Below are positions 1,509-8,006 of a DNA stretch of 8,006 bases, piece by piece. The position numbers and the translations under genes are program-made. The number at the start of each line of letters is the position of its first letter. Position 1 is the first letter of the stretch. The notes under the pieces are model-generated. The model was not told the origin of the DNA and did no database searches. It was given only the letters and a program-made list of their open reading frames with translations. Source of the stretch: a virus (Duplodnaviria; Heunggongvirae; Uroviricota; Caudoviricetes). The stretch is from the IMG/VR virus record IMGVR_UViG_2585427795_000008; one strand, 5' to 3'.

Positions 1509-1748
1509 CTATTTCCTGCGTATGGCACGTAACTTCTTAATGTGTTCTGCCGTTTCGATCTCTTCTGCTATCCGATCTGCATCAGCTTTATTCACAGGTT
1601 CAAAGTCATGATTAAAGCGGAACATGCTGGCGATACATGTTCTGCCTTTTCGGATGTAGTGAACTTTGTTGTGGGTAGAACGCAGGATTTTGCAGGGAGT
1701 GCCGTGGTGGTCGACGTACCAGGTGTTAGGAAAAATGATTCTGAACAT
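1509..1748 (-). CDS. Hypothetical phage protein (accessory/ea region)
   Basis: 79 aa ORF with ATG start and a GAGGTG SD 6 nt upstream. Same orientation as the int-xis operon. No family recognised from sequence alone. Confidence 0.5.
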   Translation of the reverse strand: MFRIIFPNTWYVDHHGTPCKILRSTHNKVHYIRKGRTCIASMFRFNHDFEPVNKADADRIAEEIETAEHIKKLRAIRRK

Positions 1749-1795
1749 TTTTACACCTCAGTTGGACGATGTTGAAATTTGCTGCTTTGAGGCCA

Positions 1796-2014
1796 TCACA
1801 GTCCCCATTGTTTGTTCTTAAGTTCGATCTCCTCCTGGCAACTTGCACAAGTCCGACAACCCTGAACGGCCAGGCGTCTTCGTTCATCTATCGGATCGCC
1901 ACACTCACAACAATGAGTGGCAGATATAGCCTGGTGGTTCAGGCGGCGCATTTTTATTGCTGTGTTGCGCTGTAATTCTTCAATTCCTGATGCTGAATCA
2001 ATGATGTCTGCCAT
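1796..2014 (-). CDS. TraR/DksA-family C4-type zinc-finger protein (phage TraR-like)
   Basis: 72 aa ORF with a CxxC-(17 aa)-CxxC motif (CCECGDPIDERRRLAVQGCRTCASC), the size and layout typical of TraR/DksA C4 zinc fingers; lambda-like phages carry a TraR homolog (orf73). Confidence 0.8.
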   Translation of the reverse strand: MADIIDSASGIEELQRNTAIKMRRLNHQAISATHCCECGDPIDERRRLAVQGCRTCASCQEEIELKNKQWGL

Positions 2015-2063
2015 CTTTCATTAATCCCTGAATTGTTGGTTAATACGCTTGAGGGTGAATGCG

Positions 2064-2090
2064 AATAATAAAAAAGGAGCCTGTAGCTCC
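2064..2090 (-). terminator. Possible intrinsic terminator (minus strand), or a hairpin inside a small ORF
   Basis: Plus strand GGAGC-CTGTA-GCTCC at 2076-2090; on the minus strand this 5-bp stem hairpin is followed by TTTTTTATTATT. The stem is short and GC-poor. Confidence 0.3.
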
Positions 2091-2112
2091 ATGATGATTT
2101 TGTTTTTCATGC

Positions 2113-2394
2113 TCACCGTTCCTTAAAGACGCCGTTTAACATGCCGATCGCCAGGCTTAAATGAGTCGGTGTGAATCCCATCAGCGTTACCGTTTCGCGG
2201 TGCTTCTTCAGTACGCTACGGCAAATATCATCGACGTTTTTATCCGGGAACTGCTGTCTGGCTTTTTTGATTTCAGAATTAGCCTGACGGGCAATACTGC
2301 GAAGGGCGTTTTCTTGCTGATGTGTCATTGAACAAGTCCCATGTCGGCAAGCATAAGCACACAGAATATGAAGCCCGCTGCCAGAAAAATGCAT
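2113..2394 (-). CDS. Hypothetical protein at the lambda orf61 position
   Basis: 93 aa ORF from an ATG at 2392-2394 with no convincing SD; an internal ATG at 2326-2328 would give 71 aa. Sits between the orf63-like ORF and the TraR-like gene in the same operon orientation. Confidence 0.45.
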   Translation of the reverse strand: MHFSGSGLHILCAYACRHGTCSMTHQQENALRSIARQANSEIKKARQQFPDKNVDDICRSVLKKHRETVTLMGFTPTHLSLAIGMLNGVFKER

Positions 2395-2404
2395 TCAGTG
2401 GTTG

Positions 2405-2596
2405 TCATACCTGGTCTCTCTCATCTGCTTCTGCTTTCGCCACCATCATTTCCAGCTTTTGTGAAAGGGATGCGGCTAACGTATGAAATTCTTCGTCTGT
2501 TTCTACTGGTATTGGCACAAACCTGACTCCAATTTGAGCGAGGCTATGTGCCATCTCAATGCTCGTTCTTAACTCAACAGGAGATGCTTTGTGCAT
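2405..2596 (-). CDS. Lambda orf63-like small protein
   Basis: 63 aa ORF with ATG start and a GGGGAG SD 5 nt upstream. Position (second gene downstream of exo) and sequence match my recollection of lambda orf63. Confidence 0.65.
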   Translation of the reverse strand: MHKASPVELRTSIEMAHSLAQIGVRFVPIPVETDEEFHTLAASLSQKLEMMVAKAEADERDQV

Positions 2597-2757
2597 ACAG
2601 CTCCCCGTTTATTATTTATCTCCTCAGCCAGCCGCTGTGCTTTCAGGGGATTTCGGGTAACAGAAAGGCCGGGAAATACCCAGCCTCGCTTTGTAACGGA
2701 GTAGACGAAAGTGATCGCGCCTACCCGGATATTATCGTGAGGATGCTTCATCGCCAT
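2569..2757 (-). CDS. Lambda orf60a-like small protein
   Basis: 62 aa ORF whose ATG overlaps the exo stop (ATGGCGATGA), indicating translational coupling. Position and sequence match my recollection of lambda orf60a. Confidence 0.65.
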
Positions 2758-3428
2758 TGCTCCCCAAATACAAAACCAATTTCAGCCAGTGCCTCGTCCA
2801 TTTTTTCGATGAACTCCGGCACCATCTCGTCAAAACTCGCCATGTACTTTTCATCCTGCTCAATCACGACATAATGCAGGCCTTCACGCTTCATTCGTGG
2901 GTCATAGTTGGCAAAGTACCAGGCATCTTTTCGCGTCACCCACATGCTGTACTGCACCTGGGCCATGTAAGCCGATTTTATTGCCTCGAAACCACCGAGC
3001 CGGAATTTCATGAAATCCCGGGAGGTAAACGGGCATTTCAGTTCAAGGCCGTTGCCGTCACTGCATAAACCATCGGGAGAGCAGGCGGTGCGCATACTTT
3101 CGTCGCGATAGATGATCGGGGATTCAGTAACATTCACGCCGGAAGTAAACTCAAACAGGGCTCTGGCGTCGTTCTCGTACTGTTTTCCCCAGGCCAGTGC
3201 TTTAGCGTTAACTTCCGGAGCCACACCGGTGCAAACCTCGGCAAGCAGGGTGTGGAAGTAGGACATTTTCATGTCAGGCCACTTCTTTCCTGAGCGGGGC
3301 TTTGCTATCACGTTGTGAACTTCTGAAGCGGTGATGACGCCGAGCCGTAATTTGTGCCATGCATCATCCCCCTGTTCGACAGCTCTCACGTCGATCCCGG
3401 TACGCTGCAGGATAATGTCCGGTGTCAT
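2748..3428 (-). CDS. exo: Lambda exonuclease (Red alpha)
   Basis: 226 aa protein [40 protein letters not shown]... is essentially lambda Exo as I recall it. Start ATG overlaps the bet stop (ATGA). Confidence 0.97.
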
Positions 3429-4210
3429 GCTGCCACCTTCTGCTCAGTGGCTTTCTGTTTCAGGAATCCGAGAGCTTTCACTGCTTCGGCCTGTGTCAGT
3501 TCTGACGATGCGCGAATGTCGCGGCGAAATATCTGGGAACAGAGCGGCAATAAGTCGTCATCCCATGTTTTATCCAGGGCAATCAGCAGAGTGTTAATCT
3601 CCTGCATGGTTTCATCGTTAACCGGAGTGATGTCGCGTTCCGGCTGACGTTCTGCAGTGTATGCGGTATTTTCGACAATGCGCTCGGCTTCATCCTTGTC
3701 ATAGATACCAGCAAATCCGAAGGCCAGACGGGCACACTGAATCATGGCTTTATGACGTAACATCCGTTTGGGATGCGACTGCCACGGCCCCGTGATTTCT
3801 CTGCCTTCGCGGGTTTTGAATGGTTCGCGGCGGCATTCATCCATCCACTCGGTAACGCAGATCGGATGATTGCGGTCCTTGCGGTAAATCCGGCATGTGC
3901 AGGATTCATTGTCCTGCTCAAAGTCCATACCATCAAACTGCTGGTTTTCATTGATGATGCGGGACCAGCCATCAACGCCCACCACCGGAACGATGCCGTT
4001 CTGCTTATCAGGGAAGGCGTAAATTTCTTTCGTCCACGGATTAAGGCCGTACTGGTTGGCGACGATCAACAATGCGATGAACTGCGCATCGCTGGCATCA
4101 CCTTTAAATGCCGTCTGGCGAAGAGTGGTGATCAGTTCCTGTGGGTCGACAGAATCCATGCCGACACGTTCAGCCAGCTTCCCTGCCAGCGTTGCGAGTG
4201 CTGTACTCAT
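3425..4210 (-). CDS. bet: Lambda Bet (Red beta) single-strand annealing protein
   Basis: 261 aa protein [66 protein letters not shown]... matches lambda Bet as I recall it. Confidence 0.97.
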
Positions 4211-4215
4211 CCGTT

Positions 4216-4512
4216 TTATACCTCTGAATCAATATCAACCTGGTGGTGAGCAATGGTTTCAACCATGTACCGGATGTGTTCTGCCATGCGCTCCTGAAAC
4301 TCAACATCGTCATCAAACGCACGGGTAATGGCTTTTTTGCTGGCCCCGTGGCGTTGCAAATGATCGATGCATAGCGATTCAAACAGGTGCTGGGGCAGGC
4401 CTTTTTCCATGTCGTCTGCCAGTTCTGCCTCTTTCTCTTCACGGGCGATCTGCTGGTAGTGACGCGCCCAGCTCTGAGCCTCAAGACGATCCTGAATGTA
4501 ATAAGCGTTCAT
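4216..4512 (-). CDS. gam: Gam (GamS form), RecBCD inhibitor
   Basis: 98 aa protein [60 protein letters not shown]... matches the lambda GamS portion. The in-frame upstream extension hits a stop at 4567-4569 after only 18 codons, so the 138 aa long form is not encoded. Confidence 0.95.
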
Positions 4513-4587
4513 GGCTGAACTCCTGAAAATGGCTGTGAAAATATCGCCCGCGAAATGCCAGGCTGATTAGGAAAACAGGAAAGGGGA

Positions 4588-4998
4588 TTAGTGATTGAGG
4601 CCGTTACCGCGTCCGTCGAGAAAAACTTCCACGAGCAAATCACGGGTATAAGTGCGCTCGATGCCGCGATGCAGATAAAGCCGTCCGCGTAAATTAGCTG
4701 ATGCAGTCCAGGTACCATCTTTGTGTTTGACCAGCATTCCTGGCATGACCGCACCGCGATTAACGGTCTGCGTTCCGTAATGTTGATGAACCATAAAAAC
4801 TCCTGCCCGTAAGCTGGGCTGCTGAACATATAGAGACTTCTGCGCGTATTCAGGCGGTGGATGGCCGCCGGTTGTCATAACTAAGCCGCCTCGTTGAAGC
4901 GACTGAGGTATAAAGTGTTGTGTTGATTTCAGCTGGTCACACCGACGTTCACGCGTCCGTTTCACCCCTCGCACTCCCCGAAGCCTGCTGAAATTCAA
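4588..4998 (-). CDS. Hypothetical protein at the N position (first ORF leftward of PL); start uncertain
   Basis: 136 codon open frame on the operon strand between the predicted PL and gam. The 5'-most start is TTG (4996-4998); internal ATGs at residues 41 and 69. N-terminal stretch is Arg-rich ([15 protein letters not shown]), loosely like the arginine-rich motif of N antiterminators, but the rest shows no similarity I recognise. Confidence 0.35.
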
Positions 4999-5071
4999 AC
5001 TGCGGATCTAAGCGGTCATCGCCACGGTGAAACAGGTGGTTACCGTATCGTTGTGTCGTTGCGATGAATTT

Positions 5072-5100
5072 ATTTAAAACTATAGTTGTTTTATCGTCAA
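5072..5100 (-). promoter_or_regulatory. PL-like early-left promoter
   Basis: Minus strand reads TTGACG (plus 5095-5100), a 17-nt spacer, then TTAAAT (plus 5072-5077). The region is near-identical to the PR promoter/operator (PR: GTTGTTGACTAAAAACAACCATAGTTTTAATCT; PL minus strand: GTTGTTGACGATAAAACAACTATAGTTTTAAATA). Confidence 0.5.
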
Positions 5101-5128
5101 CAACAAAAGTTGTTTTGTCGGTTGTTTT
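5085..5128. promoter_or_regulatory. OL operator cluster (repressor-binding inverted repeats)
   Basis: GTTGTT-N8-AACAAC at 5085-5104, AACAAC-AAAA-GTTGTT at 5099-5114, and a further GTTGTTTT at 5121-5128. Same half-site as the OR palindrome. Confidence 0.5.
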
Positions 5129-5240
5129 AAATATAACTGGTTGTATTTAGGATGGATTTATTTTGTGACTTGCATCGCATAGCGATAACTGAAGTGAGGT
5201 GTGGTGGTTTTTTGGACGGTATGAGTTATGAGGGGGAGGA

Positions 5241-5266
5241 AAAGAAAACCCGGCGCGGTTGCCGGG
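5241..5266 (-). terminator. Intrinsic terminator downstream of the lipoprotein gene (end of the immunity transcript)
   Basis: CCCGGC-GCGGTT-GCCGGG hairpin at 5249-5266; on the minus strand it is followed by TTTTCTTTTCC. Lies 8 nt past the lipoprotein stop codon. Confidence 0.6.
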
Positions 5267-5274
5267 TATGATTA

Positions 5275-5655
5275 TCAGTCAGCCCAACCTGATTTCGAGT
5301 TTATTTGGGTTTCTGACATTGTGTATTTCTTAATCGTGTCATCGTTAAAAAGAATAGTAAGTTCTTTTTTCGTACCGTTCGTTCCATTATGGAATAATCC
5401 ATAGAATGGAATAAAAGTGGTGCCATTAACTTTTACTTTTGCAAAGGCGTACTTCCAGATCTCGTTTCCACTGTCAGTATATGAAACAGCATCAGGAGAA
5501 CCAAAGTAAGATTTAACCTCATTCTTGGTTGTTTTACCTTCCTGAAGTTTAGACTGGACACTAATTTCAGTTTCATTTTTGAGTTGCTGGTTGCCTGAAG
5601 AAGCACACCCAGCCAATACAGATGCCATCATGGCAGCGATTAGGATTTTTCTCAT
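5275..5655 (-). CDS. Prophage lipoprotein with BamE/SmpA-OmlA-like domain, at the rex position
   Basis: 126 aa ORF with ATG start. Signal peptide MRKILIAAMMASVLAGC has a lipobox (LAG|C). Mature domain motifs GKTTKNEVKSYFGSPDAVSYTDSGNEIWKYAF and ELTILFNDDTIKKY resemble the BamE pattern (GMTQQQVAYALGTP...GTNTWFYVF...TLTLTFNSSGV). Region 5270-5880 is markedly AT-rich compared with its flanks. Confidence 0.8.
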   Translation of the reverse strand: MRKILIAAMMASVLAGCASSGNQQLKNETEISVQSKLQEGKTTKNEVKSYFGSPDAVSYTDSGNEIWKYAFAKVKVNGTTFIPFYGLFHNGTNGTKKELTILFNDDTIKKYTMSETQINSKSGWAD

Positions 5656-5884
5656 TTTATGTTTCCATTCATTATAATCAGAAACATCTTAACATAATGA
5701 TTCGAAATAAAAACCGCTACGAGATAGGGGGACATTTTGCTGACAGTAGCAACAAATCTCAGCTAACAACGAGAATATTTACTGAAATATGCAAACAGAT
5801 TTGGCGTTCTTATAGAGAATTTAGTGCAATATCTAATCCGAGTGGTATAAACCTTAACCTTCGCTCCCTTAAGTCGTAGATAAA

Positions 5885-6574
5885 TTAACCATGCTTCCTG
5901 TACGTCTGCGGCATGCTTCCAATGACCTTACCGAATATGAACACCCGGTTCATCTCGTCTTTCTCGATCGGGTCCCACGGCGAGTAGCTCTTGTTATCAG
6001 AGATAACCAGCAGCTTATCCTTCATCATTTGAAGACGTTTTACATGGGCAGTGTCGTCGTACAGAAACGCATAGATGCCATCACCGTCGAAAGATTTAAC
6101 AGTGATATCAACGAACAGCAGGTCACCTGGTTCGATCGTCCCTGACATGCTGTCACCTCGCACGTTAATGATGCGGATATTTTCCGCCTTCCTGCCATCG
6201 AACATGTGACGAGCATCGTCAAACGAGTACTCAACCGAGCGTAGAACTTCTACAAACTCACGGTTGATTACACCTGGCCCGGCACTGACTTCTATATCAA
6301 GAACGTCAATTTTGAAGTATTTGGAATGGCTGACAGTTGATTGTATTGGTTGCACTGTACTGTCTGACATATTTCCAACGCCAGAAGATAACCATTCTGC
6401 GCGCACACCCAAAGCGTTCGCGATCTCCACGATTTTAGTTGTTTGGTTAGCTTTCCCTGTTTCGATTTTCTGAATAGCAGCTTGGCTAACCCCGACCAAA
6501 TCCCCAAGCGCCTTTTGTGTAAGGCCTCGCGCTAATCTGGCTTCTTTAAGTCTTTCTGAGAGTGTTGTTTTCAT
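5885..6574 (-). CDS. cI-type prophage repressor (XRE HTH plus S24 LexA-like autopeptidase domain)
   Basis: 229 aa ORF. N-terminal HTH (LTQKALGDLVGVSQAAIQKIETGK), Ala-Gly candidate cleavage site (VSAGPG), and C-terminal S24 motifs (RGDSMSGTIEPGDLLFVD with the Ser, and a VKRL Lys). Divergent from the cro-like gene across an operator region. Not lambda cI by sequence. Confidence 0.92.
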   Translation of the reverse strand: MKTTLSERLKEARLARGLTQKALGDLVGVSQAAIQKIETGKANQTTKIVEIANALGVRAEWLSSGVGNMSDSTVQPIQSTVSHSKYFKIDVLDIEVSAGPGVINREFVEVLRSVEYSFDDARHMFDGRKAENIRIINVRGDSMSGTIEPGDLLFVDITVKSFDGDGIYAFLYDDTAHVKRLQMMKDKLLVISDNKSYSPWDPIEKDEMNRVFIFGKVIGSMPQTYRKHG

Positions 6575-6580
6575 AGATCA

Positions 6581-6609
6581 AATGTACAACCAAGGTTTTA
6601 TTTCATCAA
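6581..6609 (-). promoter_or_regulatory. Candidate PRM-like maintenance promoter for the repressor
   Basis: Minus strand TTGATG (plus 6604-6609), 17-nt spacer, TACATT (plus 6581-6586), ending about 6 nt before the repressor ATG. This would give a near-leaderless transcript as for lambda PRM. Confidence 0.35.
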
Positions 6610-6615
6610 ACGAAA

Positions 6616-6640
6616 ATGGTTGTTGACTAAAAACAACCAT
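6616..6640. promoter_or_regulatory. OR operator (perfect 9-bp inverted repeat)
   Basis: ATGGTTGTT-GACTAAA-AACAACCAT, overlapping the PR -35. Same half-site as the OL copies. Confidence 0.6.
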
Positions 6641-6651
6641 AGTTTTAATCT
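6623..6651 (+). promoter_or_regulatory. PR-like early-right promoter
   Basis: TTGACT (6623-6628), 17-nt spacer, TAATCT (6646-6651). Followed by a GGAGG SD and the cro-like ATG at 6679. Confidence 0.6.
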
Positions 6652-6678
6652 TGATTCGGATTAACCACGGAGGTTGTT

Positions 6679-6909
6679 ATGAACCCAGCAATCAAAACAG
6701 CGATCAATATCGTTGGTTCACAAAAGAAACTAGGCGATGCCTGCGAAGTTTCACAGCAGGCCGTCTATAAGTGGCTTCACAACAAAGCAAAGGTATCCCC
6801 TGAACATGTCGGCAGCATTGTTACGGCTACTGGTGGAGTTGTGAAGGCATACCAGATTCGCCCGGATCTTCCGAAGTTGTTTCCACACACCGAAAAGAAC
6901 GCAGCTTAA
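6679..6909 (+). CDS. Cro-like HTH regulator (YdaS/Cro family)
   Basis: 76 aa ORF with ATG and a GGAGG SD, divergent from the repressor. HTH-like segment (KLGDACEVSQQAVYKWLHNK) typical of Cro/YdaS-type proteins. Confidence 0.85.
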   Translation: MNPAIKTAINIVGSQKKLGDACEVSQQAVYKWLHNKAKVSPEHVGSIVTATGGVVKAYQIRPDLPKLFPHTEKNAA

Positions 6910-6921
6910 ATTTCCATTTCA

Positions 6922-6934
6922 CGCTCTTTAACAA
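6922..6934 (+). promoter_or_regulatory. boxA-like element (nutR position)
   Basis: CGCTCTTTAACAA lies between the cro-like and YdaT-like genes. It matches the boxA consensus of lambda nut sites (CGCTCTTA) and rrn operons (TGCTCTTTAACAA). No clear boxB hairpin follows. Confidence 0.45.
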
Positions 6935-6978
6935 TAAGCAATCAACTTAACAGTCAATTCAAACTAAAGGAGTCAATT

Positions 6979-7518
6979 ATGCAACCACTTACATACCAAC
7001 AGACTAGCGGATTTATTCCGACTGCGGTGATAAATCGTTCTCAAACAAAACAAGCTCCAGGCCACGAAAAAATCCGTGATGCCGTCCGCGCCTGGTCGGC
7101 TGTAGATAATCAGGATGTCGTTGCCGCACTCATTGTGAATGAGTATCGGGAGCAGGGCGACGGCACCATCGATTTCCCTGATGATGTCAGCCGTGCACGC
7201 CAGAAGCTGTTCCGCTTCCTCGATAACAAATTCGATTCTGAAAAATACCGAAATAACGTGCGTGAACTGACCCCGGCAATTCTGGCGGTACTACCGCTGG
7301 AATATCGCGGTTACCTGGTTGAGCAGGATAGCTTCATGACTCGGTTGGCTGAAATGGAAAAGGAACTCAGTGAGGCAAAACAGGCTGTCATTCTCAACGC
7401 ACCACGCCACCAGAAACTGAAGGAAATGAGTGAAGGTATTGTGTCGATGTTTCGTGTGGACCCGGATCTGGCTGGTCCATTAATGGCGATGGTGACCACC
7501 ATGCTGGGGGCAATATGA
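6979..7518 (+). CDS. YdaT-like protein at the cII position
   Basis: 179 aa ORF with ATG and an AAGGAG SD. The segment LTPAILAVLPLEYRGYL resembles E. coli Rac YdaT (IPAILAILPRELRHRL) as I recall it; NEYREQGDGTIDFP resembles EEYLRQGGGELPLVP. Not lambda cII. Confidence 0.75.
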   Translation: MQPLTYQQTSGFIPTAVINRSQTKQAPGHEKIRDAVRAWSAVDNQDVVAALIVNEYREQGDGTIDFPDDVSRARQKLFRFLDNKFDSEKYRNNVRELTPAILAVLPLEYRGYLVEQDSFMTRLAEMEKELSEAKQAVILNAPRHQKLKEMSEGIVSMFRVDPDLAGPLMAMVTTMLGAI

Positions 7519-7544
7519 CAGGTTCAGAAATGGCGAAAGTCGGT

Positions 7545-7577
7545 CTGCGGGAACAGAACCGACTTTCAGGTGCAAAT
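7545..7577 (+). other. Strong hairpin (10-bp perfect inverted repeat) downstream of the YdaT-like gene
   Basis: GAAAGTCGGT (7545-7554), 13-nt loop, ACCGACTTTC (7568-7577). The stem extends to about 13 bp with one bulge. No T-run follows; the IS903-group end begins 11 nt later. Confidence 0.5.
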
Positions 7578-7588
7578 CGGCTTTGTTG

Positions 7589-8006
7589 AATAAATCAGAT
7601 TTCGGGTAAGTCTCCCCCGTAGCGGGTTGTGTTTTCAGGCAATACGCACGCTTTCAGGCATACCTGCTTTCGTCATTTTGTTCAGCGCTCGTACCAGGGC
7701 CATAGCCTCCGCAACCTGACCATCGTAGTCACGCAGCGTCAGTGAACCCCCGAACAGCTGTTTTACCCGGTACATCGCCGTTTCCGCTATCGAGCGACGG
7801 TTGTAATCTGTTGTCCATTTCCACCGCGCATTACTCCCGGTCATTCGCTGATTAGCCACTGCACGGTTACGGTCTGCATATTCACCGGGCCAGTAACCCG
7901 CACCTTTTCGGGGAGGGATAAGGGCGCTGATTTTCTTACGCCGCAGTTCATCGTGACAGAGCCGGGTGTCGTAAGCGCCGTCTGCCGATGCTGCCCTGAT
8001 TTTTCT
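7589..8006 (-). mobile_element. IS903-group (IS5 family) insertion sequence, partial; continues past the window end
   Basis: Terminal inverted repeat GGCTTTGTTGAATAAATC at 7589-7606 matches the IS903 end as I recall it. It is followed by the C-terminal part of a transposase on the minus strand. Confidence 0.8.
7635..8006 (-). CDS. IS903-group transposase, C-terminal fragment (N-terminus lies outside the window)
   Basis: Frame is open from the window edge: ...RKISAASADGAYDTRLCHDELRRKKISALIPPRKGAGYWPGEYADRNRAVANQRMTGSNARWKWTTDYNRRSIAETAMYRVKQLFGGSLTLRDYDGQVAEAMALVRALNKMTKAGMPESVRIA. This is the typical IS903-group C-terminus. The ORF track shows only the part from an internal Met (7635..7859). 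Confidence 0.88.
   Translation of the reverse strand, partial: RKIRAASADGAYDTRLCHDELRRKKISALIPPRKGAGYWPGEYADRNRAVANQRMTGSNARWKWTTDYNRRSIAETAMYRVKQLFGGSLTLRDYDGQVAEAMALVRALNKMTKAGMPESVRIA

Follow-up and report, generated by a model that had tools for sequence, protein, structure and literature searches.

We found that positions 5267–5885 of the window, a stretch of viral DNA 8,006 nt in length, hold an insert that comparison with related phages showed to be a moron-type cargo cassette in a lambdoid, Rac-type immunity region. The cassette carries a single gene, and its product is, according to the structural model and profile comparisons, a lipoprotein with a divergent BamE/SmpA_OmlA-fold domain. 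By analogy with other phage lipoproteins, we tentatively propose that this protein acts in superinfection exclusion at the level of the cell envelope.

The window corresponds to the early part of a lambdoid prophage. Its left part is read from the minus strand and contains an integrase gene (1–1143), exo, bet and gam (2748–4512) and kil (4588–4998), with the kil-gam-bet-exo order extending leftward from an OL/PL region (about 5074–5150) whose operator and promoter repeats mirror those of OR/PR (about 6585–6650). Inverted-repeat comparison of 5074–5150 with 6608–6648 in OR/PR gave a best match of 19 nt that was 95% complementary. Between these two regions lie the 126-aa lipoprotein ORF (5275–5655, minus strand, ATG start) and a cI-type repressor gene (5885–6574, minus strand), which was recognized by Pfam as HTH_3 plus Peptidase_S24 and is annotated as cI in phage PhiR26_1. 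On the other side of OR/PR, a YdaS-like cro (6679–6909, plus strand) and a YdaT-like “cII” (6979–7518, plus strand) are followed by an IS5-family IS element (7562–8006). Because 5074–5150 mirrors OR/PR, the lipoprotein gene lies between cI and OL/PL and is read in the same direction as cI, in agreement with the initial annotation. In lambda, the slot between cI and OL/PL, in the same orientation as cI, is the position of rexAB.

From 1519 to 7579, the window was 99.97% identical to Escherichia phage PhiR26_1 (PV340555), in whose record the lipoprotein gene is annotated “hypothetical protein / putative lipoprotein”. The integrase/xis end (1–1518) had no match to PhiR26_1, and the step from 1518 to 1519 is, as judged from the alignment, a mosaic joint of an integration module and the early region. 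The “Cro” and “cII” of PhiR26_1, which correspond to window 6679–7518, were YdaS-like (E = 6.6e−17) and YdaT-like (E = 4.3e−30), respectively, and it is by these genes that the immunity region is classified as Rac-type. No N-like antiterminator ORF was found between kil and PL. Identity to PhiR26_1 ended at 7579. The IS element is of the IS903B type according to the RefSeq annotation of matching copies and splits replication gene O about 50–65 nt past its start; this junction was absent from all complete E. coli genomes in the collection. Because the IS element interrupts gene O, the window prophage is probably replication-defective. Outside the window, PhiR26_1 also carries genes for an OmpD-like porin, Bor, Lom and an OmpT-like omptin, together with the defence gene PD-lambda-1.

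The limits of the cassette were defined by comparison with sister phages. Both flanks of the insert recur in PhiR34_1 and Turner, the left one as far as 5266 and the right one from position 5886, with 122 unrelated bp replacing 619 bp of the window; because homology to these two phages stops at 5266 and resumes at 5886, the insert comprises 5267–5885, from the end of a terminator stem to the cI stop codon. GC content across 5301–5900 was 0.35–0.38, compared with 0.45–0.55 in the coding flanks, which bore out the earlier description of an AT-rich single-gene insert at the rex position. In PhiR5_1, PhiR47_2, PhiR30_1 and Perceval, whose cI is the same as or related to that of the window, as well as in PhiR34_1 and Turner, homology ended at 5266–5268 and resumed at 5884–5886. 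Between these borders, the window and PhiR26_1 carry the lipoprotein gene (619 bp), PhiR5_1 carries HipA/HipD (1730 bp), PhiR47_2 carries GevT/GevA (1502 bp), PhiR30_1 two hypothetical genes, Perceval two genes, and PhiR34_1 and Turner the 122-bp remnant. Since identical borders enclose six different contents in sister phages, the site from the cI stop codon to the terminator is, on these alignments, a discrete cargo hot spot with fixed borders. The PhiR phages reportedly originate from the work of Brenes and Laub in 2025.

As in other morons, the insert sits between elements that are adjacent in the related phages PhiR34_1 and Turner, and its base composition differs from that of its flanks, with the GC content of the gene below that of its locus in 16 of 16 loci. 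Acquisition of the cassette independently of its flanks, which had been suggested from the drop in GC, was likewise supported. Among 5426 complete E. coli genomes, the cassette was present in 69 (~1%), all at ≥99% identity, with the ORF intact and always adjoining a prophage repressor; the cI plus operator segment was present in 1520 of the same genomes at a coverage cut-off of 80% or more.

The 122-bp filler of PhiR34_1 and Turner (L002, 3270–3391) opens almost like the GevT/GevA cargo of PhiR47_2 (L013, 1999 onward), with ATTCTTACGC.GGTAGGTAAAGATAT. Because the start of the filler nearly matches that cargo, the empty state of the slot looks like a deletion remnant of GevT/GevA. In a Cronobacter prophage (L054), near-identical copies of one terminator (CCCGGCCACCGAGCCGGGTTTTTT) flank the lipoprotein cassette at about 6930–6960 and 7400–7430, which suggests that cassettes may move by recombination at terminator hairpins. 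With its fixed borders from the cI stop codon to the terminator, the slot offers a clean natural system for finding more lysogen-expressed cargo.

A terminator scan detected no terminator on the minus strand between cI and the lipoprotein gene, and read-through from the cI promoter into the lipoprotein gene is therefore expected. A promoter-like extended −10 element, TGTTAAGAT (5694–5686, minus strand), was recognized by conservation. Its motif, TGnTAnnAT, recurred 39–48 nt ahead of the start codon in 17 non-identical upstream sequences, among them those of relatives with 47–50% identity, against a background frequency of 0.0025 per 20 nt; transcription from this element would start near 5679 and leave a leader of ~24 nt. 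In several of the relatives' loci, a terminator stands ahead of the TGnTAnnAT block, often directly, and a hairpin with a T-run was located downstream of the lipoprotein gene in every relative checked. Because both the TGnTAnnAT block and the downstream terminators recur in relatives, the unit appears to comprise a promoter-like element, a gene and a terminator, the classic moron layout.

In the window, the scan placed an intrinsic terminator at 5238–5267 (minus strand), consisting of a hairpin (5267–5248) that begins 7 nt past the lipoprotein stop codon and a T-run. The initial annotation had regarded this as the gene's own terminator, a claim that we could not sustain: the same hairpin is found at the left cargo border of PhiR34_1, PhiR5_1, PhiR47_2, PhiR30_1 and Perceval, and because it also occurs in phages without the insert, whether empty-slot or with other cargo, it is not demonstrably the insert's own. 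On this comparison, the terminator belongs to the slot, that is, to the immunity operon, and ends the predicted cI-lipoprotein transcript.

A TATAAT upstream of the gene had also been put forward as a possible promoter. The hexamer is indeed present (plus strand 5673–5678; minus strand 5676–5671), within the palindrome ATTATAAT at 5671–5678, but it was rejected as the lipoprotein promoter because it is not conserved, relatives having TTGCAAT at this position, and because it is too near the start codon, with almost no leader left. Judged from these alignments, it is probably part of the 5′ leader, and the conserved promoter-like element is a different one. The only promoter-like match reported at the hexamer is on the plus strand (5649–5678; TTCTCA-18-TATAAT, 10/12 matches); it is directed away from the lipoprotein gene and is antisense to cI. 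Promoter-like sites in the region numbered 3, compared with 3.7 in shuffles, and were thus not in excess.

Upstream of the conserved block, a non-coding spacer of ~177 bp extends to the cI stop codon (5708–5884, minus strand), and only the last 45–50 nt before the ATG match other cassettes. A search for a plasmid origin of the spacer gave no match. A structured RNA or known sRNA in the 229-bp upstream spacer was rejected on a fold z-score of −0.73 and Rfam hits at the level of sub-threshold noise only, and a conserved 5′-leader hairpin (GTTTCC...GGAAAC) masking the ribosome-binding site was rejected on an RNAalifold energy of −0.99 kcal/mol with 4 pairs and 1 compensatory change. An antisense 85-aa ORF (5622–5879, plus strand) drew no hit from Pfam and a weak one from PHROG (E = 0.013) and was treated as spurious. 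In another lambdoid prophage, NC-SV, the anti-phage sRNA svsR is encoded at the 3′ end of cI (2026, PMC12803456; compare window 5885–5960).

The 126-aa protein starts with MRKILIAAMMASVLAGC and has a signal peptide of 16 residues (aa 1–16) and a lipobox at L14-A15-G16-C17, as had been read from the ORF, with Ala at +2. The codon of the predicted lipidated Cys17 lies at 5605–5607. Cys17 was invariant in 76 of 76 family sequences; G21-N22, just past the lipid anchor, was nearly invariant. Under the established Lol-avoidance rule, the +2 residue determines sorting and Ala directs a lipoprotein to the outer membrane; because the +2 residue here is Ala, not Asp, sorting to the outer membrane is predicted.

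The BamE/SmpA_OmlA likeness proposed for the mature domain was upheld by structural and profile comparisons. The AlphaFold2 model (mean pLDDT 79.5, core above 90) showed helices packed on an antiparallel sheet, as in the BamE fold, and the top 8 Foldseek matches in the PDB were all BamE. Using hhalign, a 76-sequence family profile matched E. coli BamE with a probability of 89% and an E value of 2.2e−6, in an alignment that gave the family a 10-residue insertion relative to BamE. The outcome with Pfam BamE (PF04355), a check that had been proposed at the outset, was divided: the protein itself scored 21.8 bits (E = 1.6e−4), under the gathering cut-off of 23.2, whereas 5 of 10 relatives at 33–45% identity passed it (23.7–33.9 bits). 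NCBIfam gave only signal-peptide-level matches, all far under cut-offs. The most conserved stretch of the family, FIPFYGLFHNGTNGTKKE (residues 77–95, window about 5371–5427), is absent from BamE, and the segment that holds it had the lowest confidence in the model (blocks 71–90, pLDDT about 50–66), as one would expect of a binding loop.

A full-length match to PHROG 3135 (E = 2.9e−48, residues 1–124) and 1332 clusters at 50% identity matching at E 0.001 or better indicated a large family. Relatives with 47–89% identity were found in prophages of many Enterobacterales, those with 70–89% identity in Citrobacter, Enterobacter, Cronobacter, Leclercia, Kluyvera and others. The survey for relatives in prophage immunity regions was also positive: prophages of Citrobacter, Enterobacter and Cronobacter, as well as Salmonella phage S107, carry the lipoprotein gene as the last gene after cI, sometimes with other cargo between, and the replication and recombination modules of these loci differ. 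A small opposite-strand ORF (63–75 aa, no Pfam family) stands 3′ of the lipoprotein gene in these immunity regions (L004–L011, 6410–6722; L054, 7420–7611; L057, 4423–4650) and has no counterpart in the window. A position beside the tape-measure gene was seen in at least 10 further genera, including Phytobacter, Raoultella, Buttiauxella, Serratia, Rouxiella, Biostraticola, Pantoea, Pectobacterium and Morganella, and in Klebsiella phage RAH1; these tape-measure-adjacent relatives share one tape-measure family, and PhiR26_1 carries a lambda-H-type gene. Other sites were beside the integrase gene (Pseudomonas phage Lodos), beside GtrII, at a prophage end and in the ROD21 island (SEN1984). Hosts of the family include plant, soil and marine bacteria.

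Relatives showed saturated synonymous sites, with pS of 0.70–0.95 against pN of 0.06–0.20; dN/dS was below 0.06 across genera in two pairs, the only ones in which dS could be estimated. By these substitution patterns, the ORF is a real gene under strong constraint. A housekeeping lipoprotein, which would have undercut the earlier reading, was rejected on the gene's presence in 69 of 5426 E. coli genomes, always by a prophage repressor, and on the location of its relatives in prophage immunity or tail modules; by distribution, it is an accessory phage gene.

We put superinfection exclusion at the envelope at slightly less than an even chance, and propose the following mechanism. In a lysogen, the gene would be transcribed by two routes, read-through from the cI promoter and its own extended −10 promoter, and the product would be exported, lipidated at Cys17 and sorted to the inner leaflet of the outer membrane, where it would display a small BamE/BLIP-fold domain in the periplasm. 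Domains of the BamE/BLIP type are widely used in protein-protein binding and inhibition. In this case, the domain may bind a conserved, periplasm-exposed component through the invariant insertion loop FIPFYGLFHNGTNGTKKE, and this component could belong to the host, as a receptor or machine of the outer membrane, or be a tail protein that the incoming phage ejects. Binding would then stop adsorption or DNA entry, in the manner of Cor and Llp, Ltp or T4 Spackle.

Several lines of evidence argue for this role. The slot with identical borders holds the depositor-named HipA/HipD and GevT/GevA systems, and lysogen expression fits the co-orientation with cI, the lack of an intervening terminator and the conserved TGnTAnnAT. 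The lipobox is present with its invariant Cys17, the BamE fold was recovered by Foldseek and hhalign with relatives above the Pfam threshold, and distribution and context mark a phage gene rather than a housekeeping one. Amino-acid identity of 70–89% is maintained across genera despite synonymous saturation, which would imply a conserved target; this might be BAM itself or some generic step in DNA entry by siphophages. The family is not restricted to pathogens, as shown by its plant, soil and marine hosts, and precedents exist in Ltp (PMC3952083) and Cor (PMC11436027). On the other side, PADLOC defence models gave no match to the lipoprotein, and the depositors of PhiR26_1 named other defence genes and left this one as a hypothetical protein or putative lipoprotein, which hints that it did not score in their screen. 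The protein has no homology to Cor past the signal peptide, and neither Llp nor Ltp was among its fold matches. In addition, location in a cargo hot spot is guilt by association, and the promoter was called from conservation only.

PhiR26_1 also has non-defence envelope cargo, and this weakens the case for exclusion and favours a lysogenic-conversion fitness factor that would change the envelope for the benefit of the host, with no anti-phage role, like Bor or Lom. Such a factor could act in tolerance of stress, detergent, bile or serum, or in adhesion. Beyond the Bor, Lom, porin and omptin genes on the same phage, the presence of SEN1984 in the ROD21 pathogenicity island of Salmonella Enteritidis and the fold relative OsmE, a stress-induced lipoprotein, are consistent with this explanation. 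However, phages of plant, soil and marine bacteria carry the family, which speaks against a role in host-animal virulence, and sister phages fill the same slot with depositor-named toxin-antitoxin systems; we hold a fitness factor to be unlikely, though more probable than the other alternatives below.

The structural matches also raise the question of a viral BamE mimic, which would dock on BamA/BamD instead of, or beside, BamE and retune the beta-barrel assembly machine. In lysogens, the conformation or activity of BamA would be changed from the periplasmic side, favouring the assembly of phage-encoded outer-membrane proteins or altering BamA as a receptor; if this were true, BamA-dependent phages or toxins would be shut out, or outer-membrane protein assembly would be biased. 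BamE was indeed the best match in both structure and sequence profile, and several beta-barrel proteins are encoded by PhiR26_1. Against these points, identity to BamE is only ~20–22%, the N-terminal positions 1–9 of the Pfam BamE profile were unmatched, the conserved family insertion has no BamE counterpart, and the fold is also present in the unrelated binders BLIP, BtiO and YjgB. Because unrelated binders share the fold, the fold alone does not imply BAM binding. No phage protein that we are aware of has been described to act on BAM in this manner, and we regard such a mimic as improbable.

BLIP-fold inhibitors and BtiO are themselves models for another function, a periplasmic immunity protein or inhibitor directed against non-phage attack, such as a type VI effector, a bacteriocin or a lytic enzyme. 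No effector or toxin gene stood alongside in any context seen, and the carriers are overwhelmingly phages, so that this function appears a shade less probable still than the mimic. A neutral passenger or a remnant in decay, without any present function, would suit a prophage that is probably defective through the IS903B-type element in its replication gene, but is very improbable in view of an ORF kept intact, at ≥99% identity, in all 69 E. coli genomes that carry the cassette, dN/dS < 0.06 across genera where estimable, and a conserved promoter-like element and terminator.

The preferred reading, exclusion, would have broader consequences if true. It would add a new structural class, that of a BamE/BLIP-fold domain on the outer membrane, to the few phage lipoproteins that prevent entry at the envelope of Gram-negative hosts. 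The family is large, spread over many genera and strongly constrained, and identifying its target could expose a new point at which infection is vulnerable. As to novelty, the claim that the gene is undescribed stands in one respect: no paper found in our literature search gives a function for a phage BamE-like or SmpA/OmlA lipoprotein. It falls in another, as the family is already catalogued, both as PHROG 3135 and as the “SEN1984 family lipoprotein”, the product name used by PGAP for the identical cassette in NZ_AP045810. That SEN1984 from ROD21 resembles BamE was noted with Phyre2 and published in 2023 (PMC10655114). NCBI pipelines often label the prophage gene “outer membrane protein assembly factor BamE”, and this label is misleading.

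Compared with known systems, the lipoprotein differs from the E. coli BAM subunit BamE in sequence (~20–22% identity, under the Pfam threshold) and in its extra conserved insertion of at least 10 residues, depending on the alignment (FIPFYGLFHNG...). BamE is a core chromosomal gene, whereas the lipoprotein is encoded by a phage cassette in ~1% of E. coli genomes. SEN1984 and PHROG 3135 belong to the same protein family as the window lipoprotein, but SEN1984 is located in an excisable island beside mobilisation genes and not in a phage immunity region. The BLIP-fold inhibitors and the T6SS immunity protein BtiO have no sequence relationship to it. Llp of T5 is an outer-membrane lipoprotein that blocks FhuA from the periplasmic side, the genes for Cor and Llp are located in or near tail and receptor-binding clusters, and T4 Spackle blocks phage DNA entry. 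Cor of phi80, N15 and HK022 inactivates FhuA, likewise from the periplasmic side (PMC11436027). As predicted for the window lipoprotein, Cor and Llp are small lipoproteins of the outer membrane that phages encode and that are produced either in the lysogen or early in infection, and the siting of their genes resembles that of many tail-module relatives of the lipoprotein gene. The Cor family, PHROG 1119, matched only residues 1–29 of the lipoprotein, the signal peptide, at E = 0.066, and no Cor or Llp chains were among the listed PDB fold matches. Under exclusion, T4 Spackle would be a functional analogue.

Ltp of Streptococcus thermophilus phage TP-J34 is likewise a lipoprotein encoded in the lysogeny module; it is transcribed in the prophage and blocks DNA injection, and it is reported to target the tape-measure protein of the incoming phage (PMC3952083). 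The relatives that adjoin tape-measure genes are a suggestive parallel to this target, although Ltp belongs to a Gram-positive host, is anchored in the cytoplasmic membrane and is not among the fold matches of the lipoprotein. No homology to RexA/RexB or to catalogued defence proteins was found with PADLOC, and Pfam and NCBIfam returned only BamE-like and lipoprotein-signal matches. RexAB, HipA/HipD and GevT/GevA share map position and predicted cI co-transcription with the lipoprotein, but they are cytoplasmic/inner-membrane abortive-infection or toxin-antitoxin systems, whereas the lipoprotein is a single protein that is predicted to be exported.
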